64,000 bases of DNA, from the NCBI RefSeq assembly GCF_054482595.1, contig NZ_CM137008.1; one strand, written 5' to 3'. Position numbers and translations under genes: made by a program. The notes beneath the pieces are model-generated. The model did no database searches. It saw only the letters and a program-made list of their open reading frames with translations, and had not been told where the DNA came from. The stretch's first letter is position 1. Each line of letters opens with the position of its first letter. This document shows, piece after piece, positions 5,535 to 18,616 of the stretch.

Positions 5535-7385
5535 ATGGCAACAATAATCCCAACAATCAGTAGCTGCAACGATAAAATTACTGCCGGAGAGAAAAGGCTG
5601 GCAAGAATTCTGGAAAGAGGACTAGGCGAAGAGTGCTGCTGTTGGTATGACATTCCCACGGGTGATAAGCATCTTCACCCAGATTTTATGATACTTTCGC
5701 CAGAAAAAGGCATTATTTTTCTCGAGGTAAAAGATTGGTTTATTACAAAAATAAAAAAAGCCAACAAGTCTAATGTTTTGTATGAGACACAAAATGGCAT
5801 TCAATCTTTAAAGAATCCGATAGAACAAGTTAGGCGATATGCTTTCGAAGCTGTAAACCAGTTAAAAAAAGACCCCCTATTGTGCCAACAGGAAGATCGT
5901 TACAATGGCAATCTTCTTTTCCCCTATGGATATGGCGTCTACTTTAGTAATATTACACGAGAAGCATTAAATAATAAATTTACTCAAGAAGAGCTGCTCG
6001 GGATCTTCCCATCAGATCTTATCATCTGCAAAGACGAACTAAATGAATTCATGTCAAAAGGGGATGTTTCATCCAAAATACATTCGTTGATTAAATATGA
6101 CTTCAAATGTCATGCTACACAAGAACAGTTGAACAGGATTAGATGGCACTTATACCCCGATGTCAGAATAGAAAGGGAAAAGAGAAGTAAAAACTGTGAT
6201 GAATTTAGTGTCGATGCACCAACCATCATTTCTATCCTGGATACTCAACAGGAACAACTTGCCAGAAGTATGAGAGACGGCCACCGAATAATTCATGGTG
6301 TTGCAGGTTCAGGTAAGACATTGATCCTCTATCATCGCTGTCAGGAATTAGCGAAAAAAAATGACAGCGAAAAGCCAATACTTGTCATTTGCTACAATAT
6401 TACTTTAGCCAAAAAACTTCGGTCGATGTTCATCAATCATCCCTTTGAAGAGAAAATAAAGGTTAATAATTTTCATGCTTGGTGTTTCCAACAAATTAAA
6501 AAAAACAAGATCACCATTCCAGAAGGGGATAATATTTTTGAAAATATGGAGCAAGCGTTGACTGATGGTTTCAACACAGGAAAAATAAAACCAGAACAAT
6601 ACAGCGCTGTATTAATTGATGAAGGACATGATTTTAAGCCCGAATGGTTAAAAATCCTGGCAAAAATGACTGACTCTCAGGACGAGAATTTGCTATTTCT
6701 TTATGATGATGCTCAGTCAATTTATCAAAAAAAGAAAGCATTAGACTTTACACTGTCCAGCGTGGATATTAAAGCGACAGGACGCACAACTATTCTTAAT
6801 ATAAATTATAGAAACACACAACAAATTCTACACTTTGCCAGTTGCATTGCATTTAATTATCTTAATAGCCATATCGATAGTTCTTTAACCTATCATAAAC
6901 CTGCTGCGGGAGGAATGAATGGCGATTATCCCAAGCTTGAACATTTCGACACACAGGACGAAGAAATAGCAAGAGCAGTCAAATGGATTACAGAGCAAAA
7001 TGAACAAGGGATTCCGTGGTCTGAAATTGCTATACTTAGTCCTTCAACTCACATCCTTTCTAACTCTCTAAGTTCTGTACTTGAATCGAAAAATATCCCC
7101 TTTAATCTTATTGTAAGCTCTGCAGATAAAAAGTCCTGGACGCCAGAACAAGAGCGTATTTCTGTTATGCCATTACCCAGCAGCAAAGGACTTGAGTTTC
7201 ACTCAGTTGTCATTATTGATGCAGCGAGAACACGGGATAATAGTGATGATTTGAGTGAGGATATAAAGAGACTCTATGTAGGTTTTACCCGAGCACGTTG
7301 CAATCTCTTGGTAACCTTGCACGGTGAAGGTGCGTTAAATGAGCATCTACTAAGAACCTATAAGCAAAGCCCACAATATATGTAA
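5535..7385 (+). CDS. NERD-domain / SF1 (UvrD-like) helicase fusion protein, 616 aa; candidate single-gene nuclease-helicase defence protein
   Basis: N-terminal NERD-like motif (GEKRLARILERGL ... HPDFMILSPEKGIIFLEVKDW). Helicase motifs: Walker A HGVAGSGKT, motif II VLIDEGHDF, KGLEFHSVVI, and C-terminal LYVGFTRAR. The gene is strongly AT-rich. Confidence 0.7.
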   Translation: MATIIPTISSCNDKITAGEKRLARILERGLGEECCCWYDIPTGDKHLHPDFMILSPEKGIIFLEVKDWFITKIKKANKSNVLYETQNGIQSLKNPIEQVRRYAFEAVNQLKKDPLLCQQEDRYNGNLLFPYGYGVYFSNITREALNNKFTQEELLGIFPSDLIICKDELNEFMSKGDVSSKIHSLIKYDFKCHATQEQLNRIRWHLYPDVRIEREKRSKNCDEFSVDAPTIISILDTQQEQLARSMRDGHRIIHGVAGSGKTLILYHRCQELAKKNDSEKPILVICYNITLAKKLRSMFINHPFEEKIKVNNFHAWCFQQIKKNKITIPEGDNIFENMEQALTDGFNTGKIKPEQYSAVLIDEGHDFKPEWLKILAKMTDSQDENLLFLYDDAQSIYQKKKALDFTLSSVDIKATGRTTILNINYRNTQQILHFASCIAFNYLNSHIDSSLTYHKPAAGGMNGDYPKLEHFDTQDEEIARAVKWITEQNEQGIPWSEIAILSPSTHILSNSLSSVLESKNIPFNLIVSSADKKSWTPEQERISVMPLPSSKGLEFHSVVIIDAARTRDNSDDLSEDIKRLYVGFTRARCNLLVTLHGEGALNEHLLRTYKQSPQYM

Positions 7386-7437: not shown

Positions 7438-7626
7438 ATGCATATCTAAGATATTAGTCACGCATGATAGCCGCCACCAAAAACACCATCATCTCCCTCG
7501 CCTCTTTGCGGTGATAAAAGCGTACCATTTTGCTGTTAAATTCCAGCGTTTTAGCCGCTGGAATTAACAAGATCAAACTTCCGGCAACGAAGATTCAGTT
7601 ATTACAAATAATTACTGGAAAAAGAG

Positions 7627-7824
7627 ATGAAAAGCGTGGTTGACAACACATCGAAATATCCTGACTGGAGTAAACGCGATGATATTAAAGCGAAACTGAA
7701 AGTTGAACTTATTCTGCTTCTACACAAGCATAAGTTCCCGCCAGTAGCGAATGATGATGTTTATATGGGTGTGCTGGCACAGGTAGAGAATTTTAAAGAA
7801 CATCATATGAGTGCTTTAAATTAA
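7627..7824 (+). pseudogene. 65-aa ORF, possible C-terminal remnant of a displaced restriction-system gene (hypothesis only)
   Basis: Short ORF upstream of symE in the position occupied by hsd genes in K-12. The motif KRDDIKAKLKVELILLLHKHKFPPV resembles my recollection of type I HsdR C-terminal tails. Unverified. Confidence 0.25.
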
Positions 7825-7943
7825 TCATGAAGGCTGGATACACTTTGTTATCCGGCCATTGTGAATTAATGTTAATTTTTCTTCCAAATCTTTCCAATAA
7901 CGCTTTTATTATTTTCTATTTTTAGCTGGACTTTCCCTGTATT

Positions 7944-7963
7944 TACTGATGATATATCCAGAT
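7944..7963 (+). promoter_or_regulatory. LexA (SOS) box-like CTG-N10-CAG element upstream of symE
   Basis: TACTGATGATATATCCAGAT read directly about 78 bp upstream of the symE ATG; symE is a known SOS-induced gene. Confidence 0.5.
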
Positions 7964-7984
7964 ATTTAGCGCGGTGCGGATGTG

Positions 7985-8065
7985 CGCCAACACACCCGCA
8001 CCGCTCATCACAATCACTATTTTCAAGGAATAGCAGTTATGACTGACACGCATTCTATTGCACAA
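7985..8065 (-). ncRNA. symR: Expected position of SymR antisense sRNA (type I antitoxin) overlapping the symE 5' end; approximate coordinates
   Basis: Placed from the known symE/SymR arrangement, not from detected promoter or terminator signals. A 9-bp inverted repeat GCGGTGCGG/CCGCACCGC lies at 7971-8004. Confidence 0.3.
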
Positions 8066-8380
8066 CCGTTCGAAGCAGAAGTCTCCCCGGCAAATAACCG
8101 TCAATTAACCGTGAGTTATGCGAGCCGCTACCCGGATTGCAGCCGTATTCCCGCCATCACCCTGAAAGGTCAGTGGCTGGAAGCCGCCGGTTTTGCCACC
8201 GGCACAGCGGTAGATGTCAAAGTGATGGAAGGCTGTATTGTCCTCACAGCCCAACCACCCGCCGCCGAAGAGAGCGAACTGATGCAGTCGCTGCGCCAGG
8301 TGTGCAAGCTGTCGGCGCGTAAACAAAAGCAGATACAGGAATTTATTGGGGTGATTGCGGGTAAACAAAAAGTTGCCTGA
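8039..8380 (+). CDS. symE: SOS-induced toxin SymE (type I toxin-antitoxin), 113 aa
   Basis: Internal ATG at 8039 of ORF 7982-8380 gives [33 protein letters not shown]..., matching SymE. Confidence 0.85.
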
Positions 8381-8388
8381 TACATTGA

Positions 8389-8419
8389 CCCGGTAGCACC
8401 AGTGCTACCGGGTATTATT
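8389..8419 (+). terminator. Hairpin plus T-rich tail between convergent symE and the GmrSD-like gene
   Basis: cccggtagca-ccag-tgctaccggg followed by tattatt, read directly. Confidence 0.5.
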
Positions 8420-8426
8420 CGCCGCG

Positions 8427-10520
8427 TTATACCAACGCGCTCTCCATCTGTTTTTCAAATGCCTGACGAATTAATCCCATAATGTAAGGAAGTTGTGCGA
8501 GGTCGCTGAAACAAATTTCCACATCACCATTGCCCCATCGCCCAACATTTGTCACATCTTTGGCAATACCTTTCGGATCGACCAGTTCATGAAACTGCAT
8601 ATTAAGCGACAATCGCAGTCGGCTTTTTTGCGGCACAACATCAACAAAATTCGTTTCAGCTTTAAACGCAATATATAGCTTCAATACTTCCTGCGTGATC
8701 CCTGCGTCCAGGCGCATAACTTCATCGCGAAGATGATCGAATAACACCCGGCTATGCGAACCATCAGCAAGAAAAGGATAATCACTCAGGCTGTAACTGG
8801 TTTTGTTTTCAGGCTGCCCCCGATAAACAGCTAAAACCTCTTCAGAAAGAGAAGGCGCTTGCCAGACCTGAATCGCGAGATCGGCCAGACGATCGGCTCG
8901 GGCGTGAATGGCGGCTTCATCCCATTTTTCGCACTGTCCAAGACCGATATTCAAATAGAGCGGGCTATGCTTAAAGCCGTCTTCAATATCGCGTTTTTCC
9001 GCGAAAGGTCTGTCACTGTAGCGGGAGTTATAGCGCGTTAATGTGAGATTCCCCAACGTATGCAACAGTTCTTTATGAATGCGTTGCCAGTCACTTCCCA
9101 GCTCTTCACGCCATTTAGCCGACAAATTTTCGTTCTGCGGCATAATATGCTCAATCGTAAACTCTTCCACGCGCTCTCTGCGTTTATCGTTTTCCAGTCG
9201 TCGTAACCAGTAGCTGCGACTACGGAAGTTATAGAGATCGCGAACTTTTAATTCCCGTTTAAATTCATCATCGTTGGGGAAACGACGATATGAAGGTAGA
9301 TTCAAAAAATGTACCTGAATACTTTCCAGATAATTTTCTTTATTAATAACTTTATAAAAAGTGGCAAATGTCTTGTTCAAAGAATTTGTCGGAATTGCAC
9401 ATACTGCACGGCGGAAAACATAAGATTCAATTAAACGAATTATGCTCAGAAAATCTTCGTGAGACAAAACGCCATTTTTATAGTCATGATAAAGCGCCAG
9501 TAAGAAAGGATACGCCACATCGACCTTTAACTCGCGCAAATCCTGAAAAGCCGTAGCAAGCGATTTGTCACTTTCTTTTCCCAATGCCATTGCACAGTAA
9601 TACTCCGCGTAGATATGAATATCTTCAACCAGCCGATCTACGCCTTTTTCAGCAACACTCTGGCTGCGGGCATGGAGTTTAAATGCCTCATAGACTTCAT
9701 CTGTCCGAGGGATCTCCCCCGTTTTTACCGTCAGATAATGACGCATAAAACTGTCAAAATATTCGCTGTAACCTTGCTGACCAAAGGCGACTTCCATTGG
9801 ACGCCAGTGATCTTCATACAATCGGGTTTGATGCTCTGGTTCGAGGCCCATCAGAATAAAATTGCGCACCAGATCGGCCTGACTTAACGCCTTACCGGTG
9901 GAGTTCATACTTTCAAAAATCAGTTGCGGATTATCCTGACCACGATTAAGCGCCACATCGACAATTAATAACTTTGCTAACCCACGACATAAGGGGATCA
10001 AGTCATCACCGAGTTTGGCAATTTGTTCATCAAAGAAAGTAAAGTTTTCCATTATTCGATGGGAATAGTTTTCTGGCATTGGTCTTTGTTTTATTAACGC
10101 CAGTAAACTGTCTTTATCAGTCTCGGTCAGCAGTAATTTAAAACCTTTCTCGCCGGACTCATAAGGATTGAGCAAATAATAATTACGCAATTTCATTGCC
10201 GAAAAGCCATCAAAAACTTCGTCTTCGCCAAGATGGCGCGATAAAGCCTCAATCAGCAACATTGCGGTCGTCAGCCGCTGCTGACCATCAATGACCAGCA
10301 ACGGAGAAATACCAGAAACCTGATACAATCCCTGCTCTATATAAACAACCGAACCGATAAAATGCGCTGATATATCGTCACGCTTTCCTGCACGAATGAT
10401 GTCGTCCCAAAGTTGCCGACATTGTTGTTCTGTCCATGAATAAGTCCGTTGATAAATGGGAATAACAAACTGCTGCGAACGTTTTAAAAAATCGAGTAAG
10501 CGAGCTTCTGTAGCTTTCAT
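8427..10520 (-). CDS. DUF262 + DUF1524 (GmrSD-family) putative Type IV modification-dependent restriction endonuclease, 697 aa
   Basis: N-terminal DUF262/ParB-like motifs IPIYQRTYSW and VIDGQQRLTT. C-terminal His-Me finger/DUF1524-like motifs FTIEHIMPQ, GNLTL and YNS. Confidence 0.7.
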   Translation of the reverse strand: MKATEARLLDFLKRSQQFVIPIYQRTYSWTEQQCRQLWDDIIRAGKRDDISAHFIGSVVYIEQGLYQVSGISPLLVIDGQQRLTTAMLLIEALSRHLGEDEVFDGFSAMKLRNYYLLNPYESGEKGFKLLLTETDKDSLLALIKQRPMPENYSHRIMENFTFFDEQIAKLGDDLIPLCRGLAKLLIVDVALNRGQDNPQLIFESMNSTGKALSQADLVRNFILMGLEPEHQTRLYEDHWRPMEVAFGQQGYSEYFDSFMRHYLTVKTGEIPRTDEVYEAFKLHARSQSVAEKGVDRLVEDIHIYAEYYCAMALGKESDKSLATAFQDLRELKVDVAYPFLLALYHDYKNGVLSHEDFLSIIRLIESYVFRRAVCAIPTNSLNKTFATFYKVINKENYLESIQVHFLNLPSYRRFPNDDEFKRELKVRDLYNFRSRSYWLRRLENDKRRERVEEFTIEHIMPQNENLSAKWREELGSDWQRIHKELLHTLGNLTLTRYNSRYSDRPFAEKRDIEDGFKHSPLYLNIGLGQCEKWDEAAIHARADRLADLAIQVWQAPSLSEEVLAVYRGQPENKTSYSLSDYPFLADGSHSRVLFDHLRDEVMRLDAGITQEVLKLYIAFKAETNFVDVVPQKSRLRLSLNMQFHELVDPKGIAKDVTNVGRWGNGDVEICFSDLAQLPYIMGLIRQAFEKQMESALV

Positions 10521-10616
10521 TCTGACGTCTTTCCGTGAAACGATGATTTCGCAATAATAACCACTTCCTTGTGGAGGTTATAGAGAAATCCTGTTTATCC
10601 GCGACGAACATACCCC

Positions 10617-10781
10617 TCACTCCACATCCTCCCTGCGTAACCCAATATCCCTCAACCGCTCATCACTCATCTGCTGTAACACTCGTCGGGTCTGCATTTG
10701 CCGCCGCCAACGCCTCACCGCCTGCCAGAGTTGCACAAGTCTGATAAACGGCGTTTTGGCTTTGTTTTCGTGAAATTCCAT
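10617..10781 (-). CDS. yjiS: DUF1127 small protein YjiS (54 aa), missed by the ORF track (below size cutoff)
   Basis: Minus-strand translation MEFHENKAKTPFIRLVQLWQAVRRWRRQMQTRRVLQQMSDERLRDIGLRREDVE, with GAGGAGG SD 5 nt upstream of the ATG at 10781. Confidence 0.7.
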   Translation of the reverse strand: MEFHENKAKTPFIRLVQLWQAVRRWRRQMQTRRVLQQMSDERLRDIGLRREDVE

Positions 10782-10957
10782 CTGCTGCCTCCTCATCTTT
10801 CAGAGGCTTCATCATCCGTCTTCTGGCAGTTCACAATACAGATGCAAATATTAGTTTTATTTAACATACAGACAGGTTAAAACAGCATCTGCATCCGGTT
10901 TTTTAGCCTCATCTGTACCGGTTTTTCTTTCTGTATGGTCCAAATAAGGAATACAGC

Positions 10958-12370
10958 ATGACGCGTTATCAACATCTGGCAACTCTGCTTGCCGAGCGGA
11001 TTGAGCAAGGGCTGTATCGTCACGGGGAGAAATTGCCGTCGGTGCGCAGCTTAAGTCAGGAGCACGGCGTCAGCATCAGCACCGTGCAGCAGGCGTATCA
11101 GACGCTGGAGACGATGAAGCTCATCACTCCGCAGCCGCGTTCGGGGTATTTTGTCGCACAACGTAAAGCCCAGCCGCCAGTGCCGCCGATGACGCGTCCG
11201 GTGCAGCGCCCGGTGGAAATTACCCAGTGGGATCAGGTACTGGATATGCTGGAGGCGCATAGCGACAGTTCCATTGTTCCGTTAAGCAAAAGCACGCCGG
11301 ATGTCGAAACGCCCAGCCTGAAACCGCTGTGGCGTGAGCTAAGCCGGGTGGTGCAGCATAATCTGCAAACCGTTCTCGGTTATGACTTGTTAGCCGGTCA
11401 GCGGGTATTGCGAGAGCAGATTGCCCGCCTGATGCTCGACAGCGGCTCGGTGGTCACCGCCGATGACATCATCATCACCAGCGGCTGCCATAACTCGATG
11501 TCGCTGGCGTTAATGGCGGTGTGTAAACCGGGCGATATTGTCGCGGTCGAATCTCCCTGTTATTACGGTTCGATGCAGATGCTGCGCGGCATGGGCGTGA
11601 AAGTGATTGAAATCCCAACCGATCCAGAAACTGGCATCAGCGTTGAAGCGCTGGAACTGGCGCTGGAACAGTGGCCGATTAAAGGCATCATTCTGGTGCC
11701 AAACTGTAATAATCCGCTGGGATTTATTATGCCGGACGCGCGCAAACGGGCCGTTCTCTCTCTCGCTCAGCGTCATGATATTGTGATTTTTGAAGATGAT
11801 GTCTACGGCGAACTGGCAACGGAGTATCCGCGCCCGCGGACCATTCATTCCTGGGATATCGACGGGCGAGTGCTGTTGTGCAGCTCGTTCAGTAAAAGTA
11901 TTGCTCCAGGCCTGCGCGTGGGTTGGGTCGCACCGGGGCGTTATCACGATAAACTGCTGCATATGAAATACGCCATCAGCAGCTTTAATGTGCCGTCCAC
12001 GCAAATGGCGGCGGCAACGTTTGTGCTGGAAGGTCACTATCATCGCCATATCCGGCGGATGCGGCAGATCTATCAGCGCAATTTGGCGCTTTATACCTGC
12101 TGGATACGGGAATATTTTCCCTGCGAAATCTGTATTACGCGCCCGAAAGGCGGATTTTTACTGTGGATAGAATTGCCTGAACAGGTCGATATGGTCTGCG
12201 TCGCGCGGCAGCTGTACCGCATGAAAATCCAGGTGGCGGCAGGCTCGATTTTCTCGGCTTCCGGCAAATACCGTAATTGTCTGCGCATCAACTGCGCTTT
12301 GCCGCTCAGCGAAACCTATCGCGAAGCACTGAAGCAAATTGGCGAGGCCGTGTATCGGGCAATAGAATAA
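10958..12370 (+). CDS. yjiR: MocR/GntR-family transcriptional regulator with PLP-dependent aminotransferase-like domain, 470 aa
   Basis: N-terminal GntR-type winged HTH (LPSVRSLSQEHGVSISTVQQAYQTLE) followed by an aminotransferase class I/II-like domain. Confidence 0.85.
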   Translation: MTRYQHLATLLAERIEQGLYRHGEKLPSVRSLSQEHGVSISTVQQAYQTLETMKLITPQPRSGYFVAQRKAQPPVPPMTRPVQRPVEITQWDQVLDMLEAHSDSSIVPLSKSTPDVETPSLKPLWRELSRVVQHNLQTVLGYDLLAGQRVLREQIARLMLDSGSVVTADDIIITSGCHNSMSLALMAVCKPGDIVAVESPCYYGSMQMLRGMGVKVIEIPTDPETGISVEALELALEQWPIKGIILVPNCNNPLGFIMPDARKRAVLSLAQRHDIVIFEDDVYGELATEYPRPRTIHSWDIDGRVLLCSSFSKSIAPGLRVGWVAPGRYHDKLLHMKYAISSFNVPSTQMAAATFVLEGHYHRHIRRMRQIYQRNLALYTCWIREYFPCEICITRPKGGFLLWIELPEQVDMVCVARQLYRMKIQVAAGSIFSASGKYRNCLRINCALPLSETYREALKQIGEAVYRAIE

Positions 12371-12611: not shown

Positions 12612-13556
12612 TTAGTACTCGATCCATGGATCGCGCTTGCTTTCAGGCAAGGGTTGCTCTAATGCCTGCATTTGCTCTGCCGAAAGTCCAGTATATCGTT
12701 GTATCCATTCAGGATCCGCACCGTTCTGCAAAAGCAATCTAAGGAGGCGTTGTTCCCCTTCTTCTTTCCCCTTTTCCATCCCTAACAGCCATCCATCATT
12801 ATGAATTCGCTCTGCAATCGTCATTATTCGCTCCCTGTGTTGTGGCATTCGACGGGTAAGTTCACTGATAAACTCATTAAAACGCGCTTCATCGCCAGTC
12901 AGTAAAATGTAATTTAACAGCGCGGTTATCTGGCTGTCATTAGCGCACCCTGTAACCAGTAATATTACCAGTTGATCAATAAGCCCCATTAGATCGCGCT
13001 GGCGAATATGCTTTTGGATCAACTCCAACAGGGCGACTCTGCGGTGCTGCACAATCTCGTCGTCTGGCACGACAGTGACATCCACCAGCGGGAACGCTGC
13101 AGTATAAACTTTCCGTGCAGTAGTCGGGTCGGCAAATTCGTCCAGCCAGCACAGGGACCAGGGATAAGGACTACGGCTACCGTGATAAAACAGCATCGGG
13201 ATGACCAGCGGTAGCAACCGGCGTTTATCATGCTCTATATGGCGCTGCATCACTGCCATGGTATAGCGCATCAGGCGAAAGGCCATATGAATATCCTCAC
13301 GGCTCTGATGTTCAATCACCACATAGATATAGCCATCGCCTTCCCGGGTCTTTACCGACCACAGAATATCGGAGTGTAGCGCCCGCAATTTTTCATCGAC
13401 AAAGCTGGCGGATTCCAGTTTTAAGCTGTCGAGATCGCACAGTTCACGTAAATCTTTGGGTAAGTGGATCTCCATAAAATCCCGCGCGGTGTCAGGGTGC
13501 ATGAGAAAAGATTTAAATAATGCGTCATGCGGCGTGCTGGTCGTGAAGTTTGTCAT
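12612..13556 (-). CDS. rpnD: Rpn-family recombination-promoting nuclease (YhgA-like PD-(D/E)XK), 314 aa, apparently intact
   Basis: [36 protein letters not shown]... is typical of the Rpn/YhgA family; single uninterrupted ORF. Confidence 0.75.
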
Positions 13557-14022: not shown

Positions 14023-15255
14023 ATGCCACGTTTTTTTGCCCGCCATGCCGCCACGCTGTTTTTCCCGATGGCGTTGATTTTGTATGACTTTGCCGCCTAT
14101 CTTTCGACGGACCTGATCCAGCCAGGGATCATTAATGTGGTCCGTGATTTTAATGCCGATGTCAGTCTGGCCCCGGCTGCCGTCAGTCTCTATCTCGCTG
14201 GAGGCATGGCATTGCAGTGGCTGCTGGGGCCGCTTTCCGACAGGATTGGCCGCAGGCCAGTGCTGATTACCGGGGCGCTCATTTTTACCCTTGCCTGCGC
14301 CGCGACAATGTTCACAACGTCTATGACACAGTTTCTTATCGCGCGTGCAATTCAGGGCACCAGTATCTGTTTTATTGCTACCGTTGGTTATGTCACGGTG
14401 CAGGAGGCGTTCGGACAGACAAAAGGGATCAAGTTGATGGCGATTATCACCTCCATCGTACTGATTGCGCCGATTATTGGCCCGCTTTCCGGCGCAGCTC
14501 TGATGCACTTTGTGCACTGGAAAGTCCTTTTTGCCATCATTGCGGTTATGGGTTTTATCTCATTTGTTGGCTTACTGCTGGCGATGCCAGAGACGGTGAA
14601 GCGCGGCGCGGTTCCATTTAGCGCCAAAAGCGTCTTGCGCGATTTTCGTAATGTCTTTTGCAATCGGCTGTTCCTCTTTGGCGCAGCAACCATCTCTTTA
14701 AGCTATATCCCAATGATGAGTTGGGTGGCTGTCTCGCCGGTGATCCTGATTGACGCAGGCGGCTTAACGACCTCGCAGTTCGCCTGGACACAGGTTCCGG
14801 TGTTCGGCGCGGTGATTGTCGCGAATGCCATCGTGGCGCGTTTCGTTAAAGATCCGACCGAACCGCGCTTTATCTGGCGTGCCGTACCCATTCAACTGGT
14901 TGGCCTCGCGCTGTTGATTATCGGCAATCTGCTGTCACCGCACGTCTGGCTGTGGTCGGTGCTGGGCACCAGTTTGTATGCTTTCGGGATTGGTTTGATC
15001 TTCCCGACCTTATTCCGCTTTACGCTTTTTTCCAATAACTTACCGAAAGGGACCGTCTCCGCATCGCTGAATATGGTGATCCTGATGGTGATGTCTGTCT
15101 CGGTCGAAATCGGCCGCTGGCTGTGGTTTAACGGCGGTCGCTTGCCGTTTCATCTGTTAGCCGTCGTGGCGGGCGTTATCGTCGTTTTCACCCTGGCAGG
15201 ATTGCTCAATCGCGTGCGCCAACATCAGGCTGCCGAGCTGGCGGAGGAGCGGTGA
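14023..15255 (+). CDS. mdtM: MFS multidrug efflux transporter MdtM, 410 aa
   Basis: 12-TM MFS-like protein. Start is taken at the ATG at 14023, preceded by GGAG; the ORF track used an upstream TTG. Confidence 0.9.
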
Positions 15256-15295
15256 TTTTTGCGCGATCTTGCCGTCAGGCTCTATTCTTAACGTT

Positions 15296-16576
15296 ATGAA
15301 TAAACTCATTGAACTCAGACGCGCCAAAATGTTGGCGCTCTCTTTACTGCTTATCGCCGCTGCTACCTTTGTCGTTACGCTGTTTTTGCCGCCCAATTTT
15401 TGGGTGAGCGGTGTGAAGGCGATTGCCGAAGCAGCGATGGTCGGCGCGCTGGCGGACTGGTTTGCGGTGGTGGCGCTGTTTCGCCGCGTGCCGATTCCGA
15501 TCATTTCTCGTCATACAGCGATTATCCCGCGTAATAAAGACCGGATTGGCGAAAATCTCGGCCAGTTCGTGCAGGAAAAATTTCTTGATACTCAATCCCT
15601 GGTGGCATTGATTCGACGCCACGAACCGGCGTTGTTGATTGGCAACTGGTTTAGTCAGCCAGAAAACGCCCGCCGCGTTGGTCAGCATCTGTTGCAGATC
15701 ATGAGCGGTTTTCTCGAATTAACTGATGATGCGCGTATTCAGCGCCTGCTTAAGCGCGCGGTCCATCGGGCGATTGATAAGGTCGATCTTTCCGGCACCA
15801 GTGCGTTGATGCTGGAGAGTATGACCAAAAACGATCGTCATCAGGTGCTGCTGGATACGCTGATCGCACAGTTGATCGCCCTTCTCCAGCGCGATAAATC
15901 GCGCAAGTTTATCGCCCAGCAAATTGTTCGCTGGCTGGAGAGTGAGCATCCACTGAAAGCCAAAATTCTCCCCACCGAATGGCTGGGCGAACATAGCGCG
16001 GAGTTGGTTTCTGACGCGGTGAATTCTTTGCTTGATGATATCAGCCGCGATCGTGCGCATCAGATCCGCCATGCGTTTGATCGCGCCACTTTTGCCCTGA
16101 TCGACAAGCTGAAAAACGATCCGGAAATGGCAGCGCGAGCCGATGCCGTAAAAAGTTATCTGAAAGAAGATGAAGCTTTTAACCGCTATCTCAGTGAATT
16201 GTGGGGGGATTTACGGGAATGGCTGAAAGCGGATATCGACAGTGAAGATTCTCGTGTGAAAGAACGTATCGCGCGGGCGGGTCAATGGTTTGGCGAAACG
16301 TTAATTGCCGATGATGCCTTGCGGGCGTCGTTAAATGGTCATCTGGAACAAGCCGCGCACCGCGTCGCGCCTGAGTTTTCCGCATTCCTGACGCGCCACA
16401 TCAGCGATACGGTAAAAAGCTGGGATGCCCGGGATATGTCGCGGCAAATAGAGTTAAATATCGGCAAAGATCTGCAGTTTATTCGTGTCAACGGTACGCT
16501 GGTTGGCGGTTGTATTGGGCTAATTTTATATTTGCTGTCGCAGCTCCCGGCCTTGTTCCCCCTCGGCAATTTTTAG
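15296..16576 (+). CDS. yjiN: DUF445 inner membrane protein YjiN, 426 aa
   Basis: ORF 15269-16576; start taken at the internal ATG giving [22 protein letters not shown]... Confidence 0.8.
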
Positions 16577-16691
16577 AAATCCATGAAAAACTAAGTGGCT
16601 AACCGCGAGAGAGATCAAATAAACCATACTAAAAGAATGGTAATAATGTGGCCTCTTTTCATTATCTCCCGTGGTACGGGGAAGGAAAATC

Positions 16692-18616
<1,925 letters not shown>

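Follow-up and report, generated by a model that had tools for sequence, protein, structure and literature searches.

The locus considered here raises the question of which DNA is attacked by a GmrSD-type protein encoded in the Escherichia coli immigration control region (ICR), and what the domain that follows its nuclease contributes. The window, a stretch of 64,000 nucleotides from contig NZ_CM137008.1 (RefSeq assembly GCF_054482595.1), is part of an E. coli chromosome and holds, at positions 8427 to 10520 on the reverse strand, a complete gene for a protein of 697 amino acids. Judged from its sequence, the product is a stand-alone, single-chain GmrSD-family protein of the ICR. It may well be a type IV enzyme that targets DNA with non-host (phage-type) base modifications and so complements type I restriction, a reading that we regard as rather more probable than improbable.

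An intact gene with three domains

The gene, from the open reading frame (ORF) list and translation, and the domains and motifs within it are located as follows.

8427-10520, reverse strand: complete gene of the 697-residue GmrSD-family protein (ATG at 10518-10520, stop codon at 8427-8429)
9855-10496, reverse strand: GmrSD_N/DUF262 ParB-like NTPase domain, residues 9-222 (Pfam PF03235, E 9.4e-35; confident in the AlphaFold2 (AF2) model)
10275-10289, reverse strand: DGQQR nucleotide-hydrolysis motif, residues 78-82 (from the translation)
9279-9854, reverse strand: all-helical linker domain, residues 223-414 (AF2 secondary structure)
8880-9278, reverse strand: GmrSD_C/DUF1524 His-Me finger nuclease domain, residues 415-547 (Pfam PF07510, E 2.3e-26)
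9138-9152, reverse strand: EHIMP catalytic motif with E457 and H458, residues 457-461 (from the translation)
9039-9053, reverse strand: GNLTL segment with N491, the His-Me finger Asn (from the translation)
8430-8855, reverse strand: C-terminal module, residues 556-697 (142 amino acids), a flexible linker at about 566-578 followed by DUF5655
8451-8750, reverse strand: Pfam match to DUF5655, residues 591-690 (PF18899, E 1.2e-12)

The E-values for all three Pfam domains are far beyond chance, and the protein has every feature of the GmrSD family: a DUF262 domain with DGQQR, a DUF1524 domain with (D/E)HxxP and a downstream Asn, and between them a large helical linker, which is typical of GmrSD homologues and which, in the full-length AF2 model (mean predicted local distance difference test score, pLDDT, 87.6), is helical from residue 228 to about 406-450. 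The first-pass annotation of this DNA, made from the letters alone, had placed a DUF262/DUF1524 gene of this family here and had recognized both the DGQQR and the His-Me finger motifs, and on these points it was correct; it had also allowed for inactivating lesions, and the translated ORF is uninterrupted with none in the catalytic residues. In an alignment of 44 homologues of 42-84% identity, G79, R82, and N491 are invariant, and D78, Q80, Q81, E457, H458, and N498, the last of which lies 3' of the GNLTL segment, are at least 90% conserved. Mutation of the His-Me motif at the positions equivalent to E457 and H458 inactivates both BrxU and Eco94GmrSD (D507A/H508A in the latter), as does N522A, the equivalent of N491, in Eco94GmrSD. 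A search of NCBIfam with the 697-residue protein gave no match, and a scan of positions 7900-11000 for promoter and terminator consensus sequences found sites no more numerous than in shuffled sequence.

Purifying selection is strong in all four regions of the protein, with pN values of 0.07-0.26 per site, synonymous sites being saturated; variability in the C-terminal module exceeds that of the other regions only slightly.

The C-terminal DUF5655 module

The further residues of unknown function, about 150 in number, that the first-pass annotation described beyond the DUF1524 motif are real (142 amino acids) but are not unassigned sequence: the domain search that it had proposed for them returns DUF5655, a catalogued and widely conserved domain, with a match that spans model positions 13-108 of 109. 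When residues 556-697 were modeled by AF2 from 50 diverse homologous segments (pLDDT 94.8, predicted template modeling score 0.83), the order of elements was a short helix, a long helix, a four-stranded sheet, a conserved long loop, a fifth strand, and a long C-terminal helix. The conserved motifs are YIAFK, TNFVD, DP, and RWGNGD, of which DP and RWGNGD sit in the long conserved loop. The tether that joins the module to the nuclease has low confidence in the full-length model (pLDDT <50 at residues 569-573).

For the module, a YdhG/YjbR/frataxin-like "double-wing" α/β fold is predicted with high confidence, the best structural match being a frataxin-like YdhG protein, with type III chaperone-like folds among the weaker matches. 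The fold is common to YdhG-like (DUF1801) and MmcQ/YjbR (DUF419) proteins and to the C-terminal domain of T4 MotA, but a sequence relationship of these to DUF5655 is undetectable: the 697-residue protein has no Pfam match to MmcQ/YjbR (PF04237) or YdhG-like (PF08818) even at E ≤10, and a profile built from the C-terminal module matched no PDB sequence significantly (best E 0.45). DNA binding has been proposed or shown for the YjbR/MotA double-wing group, and in predicted restriction proteins of the modification-dependent kind YjbR-type domains are joined to nucleases and EVE domains. Seven polar residues of DUF5655, Lys620, Asn624, Asp627, Asn640, Asp648, Asn664, and Gln686, are invariant in the alignment of 44 homologues and point to a specific ligand or partner.

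An exhaustive search of representative proteins found 1454 that match the module at E ≤1e-3. The architectures include GmrSD fusions, many fragments, tandem copies, the PADLOC candidate PDC-S18, and fusions to HsdS target-recognition domains, and the module was found once with a radical-SAM fragment and once with a SLOG domain; a word-indexed homology search with the same module had returned mostly fragments of the same family and little on other architectures. The N-terminal part of PDC-S18 gives non-significant hints of a PD-(D/E)xK nuclease (HSDR_N_2, E 0.19; NucS_C, E 0.32). The HsdS fusions are metagenomic, one beside a tyrosine recombinase (locus L013, 5055-6239) and the other beside an inverted copy of hsdS (locus L014, 953-2035); these contexts resemble phase-variable hsdS shufflons, and the proteins could be functional fusions or products of recombination. 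In the searchable literature DUF5655 is mentioned in one paper, in passing, and it is not among the extra GmrSD domains listed by Machnicka et al. (2015), which are DUF4268, DUF4357, and DNA_binding_1.

The probable target and the alternatives

The setting of the gene bears on its role. A 3.6-kb stretch around it is 100% identical to several complete genomes, the DNA of the gene itself being identical to that in E. coli XH990 and other strains, and from the annotation of an identical strain the order of the neighborhood is opgB-lgo-tsr-btsT-yjiX-yjiA ... yjiS-yjiR-rpn-mdtM-yjiN. This is the ICR, a classical hotspot for restriction genes. The gene lies between yjiS and symE, an interval that in K-12 is occupied by yjiT, yjiV, and mcrCB; no remnant of it was found in K-12, where the alignment is limited to the symE and yjiS flanks. 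Its neighbors are yjiS, symE, a remnant of hsdR, and a gene of the NERD-UvrD type. No dnd or ssp genes are annotated in a 31.6-kb region of the identical strain, no Hma (helicase-methylase-ATPase) system is found among the neighbors of the gene, and no cognate methyltransferase or modification gene accompanies it at the locus.

The gene, its location in the ICR, and its family are already known from the literature. He et al. (2015) and the 2025 EcoSal Plus review list gmrSD homologues of the ICR, the latter in 12% of 8424 enterobacterial ICRs, and mcrBC is described as having been replaced by gmrSD homologues in such E. coli strains; one of these homologues, APECO1_2080, is reported to be 24% identical to Eco94GmrSD. 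The published homologue occupies the same slot, beside symE and type I hsd genes in the place of mcrBC, with no essential difference seen, and the gene of the window appears to be the same one, old locus tags having been matched by inference. The papers concerned give it in a gene list, without discussion of activity or of the C-terminal domain.

Among PADLOC models, the best match is "Orf5" (PDLC02693, E 2e-223, residues 10-553), followed by the HEC-06 models PDLC04155, PDLC04157, and PDLC04154 (E 1.5e-67 to 7.6e-62, residues 2-555), mREase_IV (E 4e-28), and SspE (E 4e-21). In the Salmonella dpt/dnd cluster, the DUF262/DUF1524 gene now known as dndI was first called ORF5, and the PADLOC label presumably denotes that gene, a reading of the name rather than of PADLOC documentation.

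By hidden Markov model (HMM) comparison, HEC-06 is the closest relative to have been validated by experiment; it gives E. coli protection against phages, and it is inactivated in defense by the substitutions Q79A and R80A in DGQQR and by E471A and H472A in EHxxP (Payne et al. 2024, bioRxiv 10.1101/2024.01.29.577857), and in the accessible part of that paper its substrate and the phages that it restricts are not stated. HEC-06 has in common with the 697-residue protein the core of DUF262, linker, and DUF1524, with DGQQR and EHxxP, but it is embedded in Hma systems rather than in the ICR and lacks DUF5655, its HMMs stopping at residue 555, where the module begins. According to the same source, GmrSD-like genes are often located inside type I, Hma, and BREX systems and may complement them in defense against modified DNA.

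The classical enzymes Eco94GmrSD, EcoCT596GmrSD, and BrxU share the family, the domain order, and the (D/E)HxxP...N active site, and BrxU, like the family of the present protein, is embedded in systems that attack unmodified DNA; however, the classical GmrSD prototypes are distant, are carried by prophages or plasmids, and have no DUF5655.

Homologues with about 70% identity over 700 residues are found in Citrobacter, Oceanimonas, Psychrobacter, Halomonas, Salinivibrio, and Kiritimatiella. Foldseek also matches proteins of about 690-700 residues in the AlphaFold database, annotated with DUF262 or DUF1524, from Helicobacter, Eubacterium, Bacteroides, relatives of Chloroflexi, and Methanobrevibacter; these structural matches suggest the same three-domain architecture, which is retained from Proteobacteria through Firmicutes and Helicobacter to archaea, the distant groups being represented by the Foldseek matches. 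Seven homologue loci have the following arrangements.

Kiritimatiella (L005): hsdM-hsdS-gene-hsdR, with overlapping stop and start codons
Psychrobacter (L006): hsdM-hsdS-hsdR-ygjP-gene
Oceanimonas (L007): brxR-hsdM-hsdS-bro-hsdR-gene-PDDEXK
Two enterobacterial ICRs (L010, L011): gene divergent from, or convergent with, hsdMSR
Metagenomic contig (L012): gene directly after brxL
Nitrincola (L009): gene beside Mks-like genes and hipA

All seven are defense contexts, with a type I restriction-modification (R-M) system adjacent to or enclosing the gene in five, and none has dnd or ssp genes among its Pfam-annotated neighbors. The first-pass annotation had allowed that the protein might belong to a non-defense ParB-like family; what is found is an ICR defense island in the window and a defense context for each of the seven sampled homologues.

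By analogy with Eco94GmrSD, BrxU, HEC-06, DndI, and SspE, binding and hydrolysis of nucleoside triphosphate in the N-terminal domain would drive a conformational switch, which would enable nicking or cutting of invading DNA by the C-terminal His-Me nuclease. From its context, the target would be DNA that bears foreign modifications, in the manner of type IV enzymes. DUF5655 would most likely serve as an accessory DNA-contact or regulatory domain and would be dispensable for the core chemistry, because HEC-06 lacks it.

The choice of target draws on several observations taken together: the gene occupies the slot of mcrBC in K-12, it keeps company with systems directed against unmodified DNA, no modification partner goes with it, and it is tolerated alone. 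It therefore probably targets foreign modifications. The tolerance follows from the fact that the gene is intact without visible companion genes in many genomes, and the product is therefore not toxic to unmodified self DNA. Of the first-pass label "type IV," the part that stands is membership of the GmrSD family, whereas modification dependence is extrapolated, the closest solved relatives being DndI and SspE.

It should be recognized that a number of points weigh against a modification-dependent enzyme. DndI and SspE, the relatives of solved structure closest to the protein, are self-modification sensors, not modification-dependent cutters, and BrxU is far more distant. In the window the neighboring type I system is reduced to the hsdR remnant, and in some lineages the gene is no longer intact (frameshifted in O157:H7, interrupted by an insertion in strain THO-010). 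The DUF5655 module is acidic, with 15 Lys and Arg versus 20 Asp and Glu and an isoelectric point of 5.2, which is unexpected of a general DNA binder, and YdhG, its best structural match, is not a proven DNA binder.

It is possible, although we consider it rather unlikely, that the protein is instead an effector like DndI, SspE, or HEC-06 that is not modification-dependent and attacks unmodified invading DNA, the host being spared by a mark of its own (type I methylation or phosphorothioate) or by a need for an infection signal. Among solved structures, DndI (9JFL; phmmer E 6.8e-13) is the nearest in sequence, followed by SspE (E 3e-6), and Foldseek with the full-length AF2 model ranks DndI (5.9e-16, TM about 0.5) and SspE (4.8e-14) ahead of BrxU (1.8e-5). 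In both relatives phosphorothioate on host DNA is read as a self mark and unmodified phage DNA is nicked. The name "Orf5" of the best PADLOC model, with its link to dndI in the Salmonella dpt cluster, fits the same account, as does the frequent embedding of the family in hsdM-hsdS-hsdR operons, at times with translational coupling.

However, DndI and SspE (6JIV/7DRS) have two catalytic domains in common with the 697-residue protein at the level of family similarity (identity about 18%), and neither DndI (596 residues) nor SspE has a match to the DUF5655 region. They are also partnered with dnd or ssp phosphorothioation genes, and none of these accompanies the window gene or lies in the seven sampled homologue loci; according to the 2025 EcoSal Plus review, phosphorothioation systems are absent from the ICR. 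Proteins of about 70% identity are paired with unrelated HsdS proteins or, as in the window, with no type I system, which makes a common sequence-specific self mark unlikely, and DndI is toxic without its modification genes, whereas the window gene is carried alone.

A separate question is the part played by the C-terminal module. The suggestion in the first-pass annotation that this region could determine modification specificity is plausible, but the module is acidic and HEC-06 is functional without one. That DUF5655 is a protein-interaction or sensor domain that regulates the nuclease, and not a DNA reader, is on this question a doubtful proposition; its partner might be a type I R-M complex, a phage protein, or a small molecule. 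Such a role would suit the acidity of the module, its frataxin/YdhG-like fold with type III chaperone-like folds among the weaker matches, its flexible tether, and its occurrence in HsdS target-recognition fusions, PDC-S18 candidates, and tandem arrays, but the HsdS fusions are single metagenomic contigs in shufflon-like loci that could be recombination products, DUF5655 persists in loci without a type I system, and DNA binding is known or predicted for the YjbR and MotA relatives of the fold.

It is quite unlikely, in our estimate, that the GmrSD plus DUF5655 clade is a distinct, very widespread class of DndI/SspE-related nucleases rather than classical type IV, with DUF5655 as a new sensor, either a reader of modified DNA or a link from the nuclease to type I R-M complexes or phage anti-restriction proteins. 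If true, this would explain the frequent place of the clade within hsdMSR operons.

Annotation, distribution, and significance

RefSeq/PGAP divides DNA identical to that of the window gene into a DUF262 pseudogene "missing C-terminus" and a 387-residue "GmrSD restriction endonuclease domain-containing protein," the latter beginning at the internal Met311 of the 697-residue ORF. The copies annotated in this way include that of the window, one at 15028-17121 of locus L001, and that of ATCC 8739 (locus L015, 32714-34807), and the split recurs in nearly all of the rows listed for full-length copies. By sequence comparison, the DNA so divided in the identical strain is base-for-base equal to the intact ORF of the window, the ORF of ATCC 8739 is likewise uninterrupted, and the submitters' GenBank annotation and UniRef hold the full 697-residue protein.

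In E. coli O157:H7 strain 2-6-2 (locus L002, 6001-8093), which has a copy 98.1% identical to the window gene at the DNA level, one G has been lost from a run of five at nucleotide 801 of the gene, and this frameshift yields real ORFs of 293 and 387 residues, WP_001304007 and WP_001304006. The RefSeq split is apparently a propagation of the frameshifted 387-residue product of O157:H7 onto intact genes. That the gene is broken, as the RefSeq split would have it, is ruled out: the DNA is identical to the intact ORF, and the split mirrors the O157:H7 products.

The exact 697-residue protein is present on 499 public contigs, and its 90% identity cluster has 3852 members. At a coverage of 80% or more, the gene is found in 1360 of 5426 complete E. 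coli genomes (about 25%), nearly always on the chromosome and in single copy; the ortholog in ATCC 8739 is intact, with 5 of its 697 residues different. Decay is nevertheless observed in some lineages. In a spread sample, 8 of 26 full-length matches are one base short, and six of these eight are score-identical to the frameshifted O157:H7 copy, several of the six being labeled O157:H7 and one having been aligned; in strain THO-010, ISKpn26 has inserted within the gene. A second allele, of 699 residues, has about 77% amino acid and 73.6% nucleotide identity and also carries DUF5655.

That the gene is a functionless, decaying relic in this strain is very improbable, for although the RefSeq pseudogene fragment and shortened ORF, the frameshifted O157:H7 copies, the insertion in one strain, and the deletion of the neighboring type I system could be read in that way, the ORF is uninterrupted with all catalytic residues present, the RefSeq split is not caused by a lesion, and selection is strongly purifying, the intact copy of ATCC 8739 differing by only 5 residues.

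The 699-residue allele (locus L003, 8001-10100) is located elsewhere in the ICR, beside yjiA, and has a type I system, Fic, and brnA as neighbors. ATCC 8739 also encodes a separate 550-residue DUF262 protein next to IS3 (locus L015, 26583-28235). Other features of the window are the following.

5535-7385, forward strand: 616-residue protein labeled "3'-5' exonuclease" in RefSeq, in a stretch of low guanine plus cytosine (GC) content (about 0.37)
7615-7824, forward strand: hsdR remnant, annotated as a type I restriction endonuclease domain without its N terminus
7968-8044, reverse strand: SymR antitoxin small RNA (Rfam RF01809, 91.7 bits), overlapping the 5' end of symE
8039-8380, forward strand: symE, convergent with the GmrSD-like gene, the stop codons being 46 bp apart
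12612-13556, reverse strand: intact gene for an Rpn-family recombination-promoting nuclease of 314 residues
19196-21523, forward strand: ORF of 775 residues, a pentapeptide-repeat protein in the XH990 annotation, in a very low-GC island (GC 0.31-0.38)

The hsdR remnant shows that this ICR has lost a type I R-M system by deletion. The protein encoded at 5535-7385 matches the PADLOC entry C3a187, "NERD+UvrD" (E 4.7e-141), and more weakly GajB- and Nhi-like helicases; its gene, which stands in the place of mrr and hsdRMS beside yjiA, is probably another defense gene. Of the counterparts of the rpn gene, that of K-12 (rpnD) is a pseudogene and that of O157:H7 carries a frameshift. The 775-residue ORF lies between the yjiL/DUF3343 genes and yjiK and has no match in PADLOC; identity of the window to strain XH990 ends from position 19599, inside this ORF.

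The RefSeq mis-annotation, as a fragment and a shortened ORF, is systematic and conceals an intact gene from surveys of gene content. Few restriction-type genes in E. coli are more common: about a quarter of complete genomes have it, among them that of ATCC 8739, a strain of laboratory and industrial use, and it fills the place of McrBC. Knowledge of the substrate of the 697-residue protein would bear on host range in phage therapy, on the transformability of wild E. coli, and on the reasons why type I R-M operons include GmrSD-like nucleases. DUF5655 is found in more than 1400 representative sequences, its associations being almost all with restriction-type proteins, and the assignment of a role to it would be a small but real advance.

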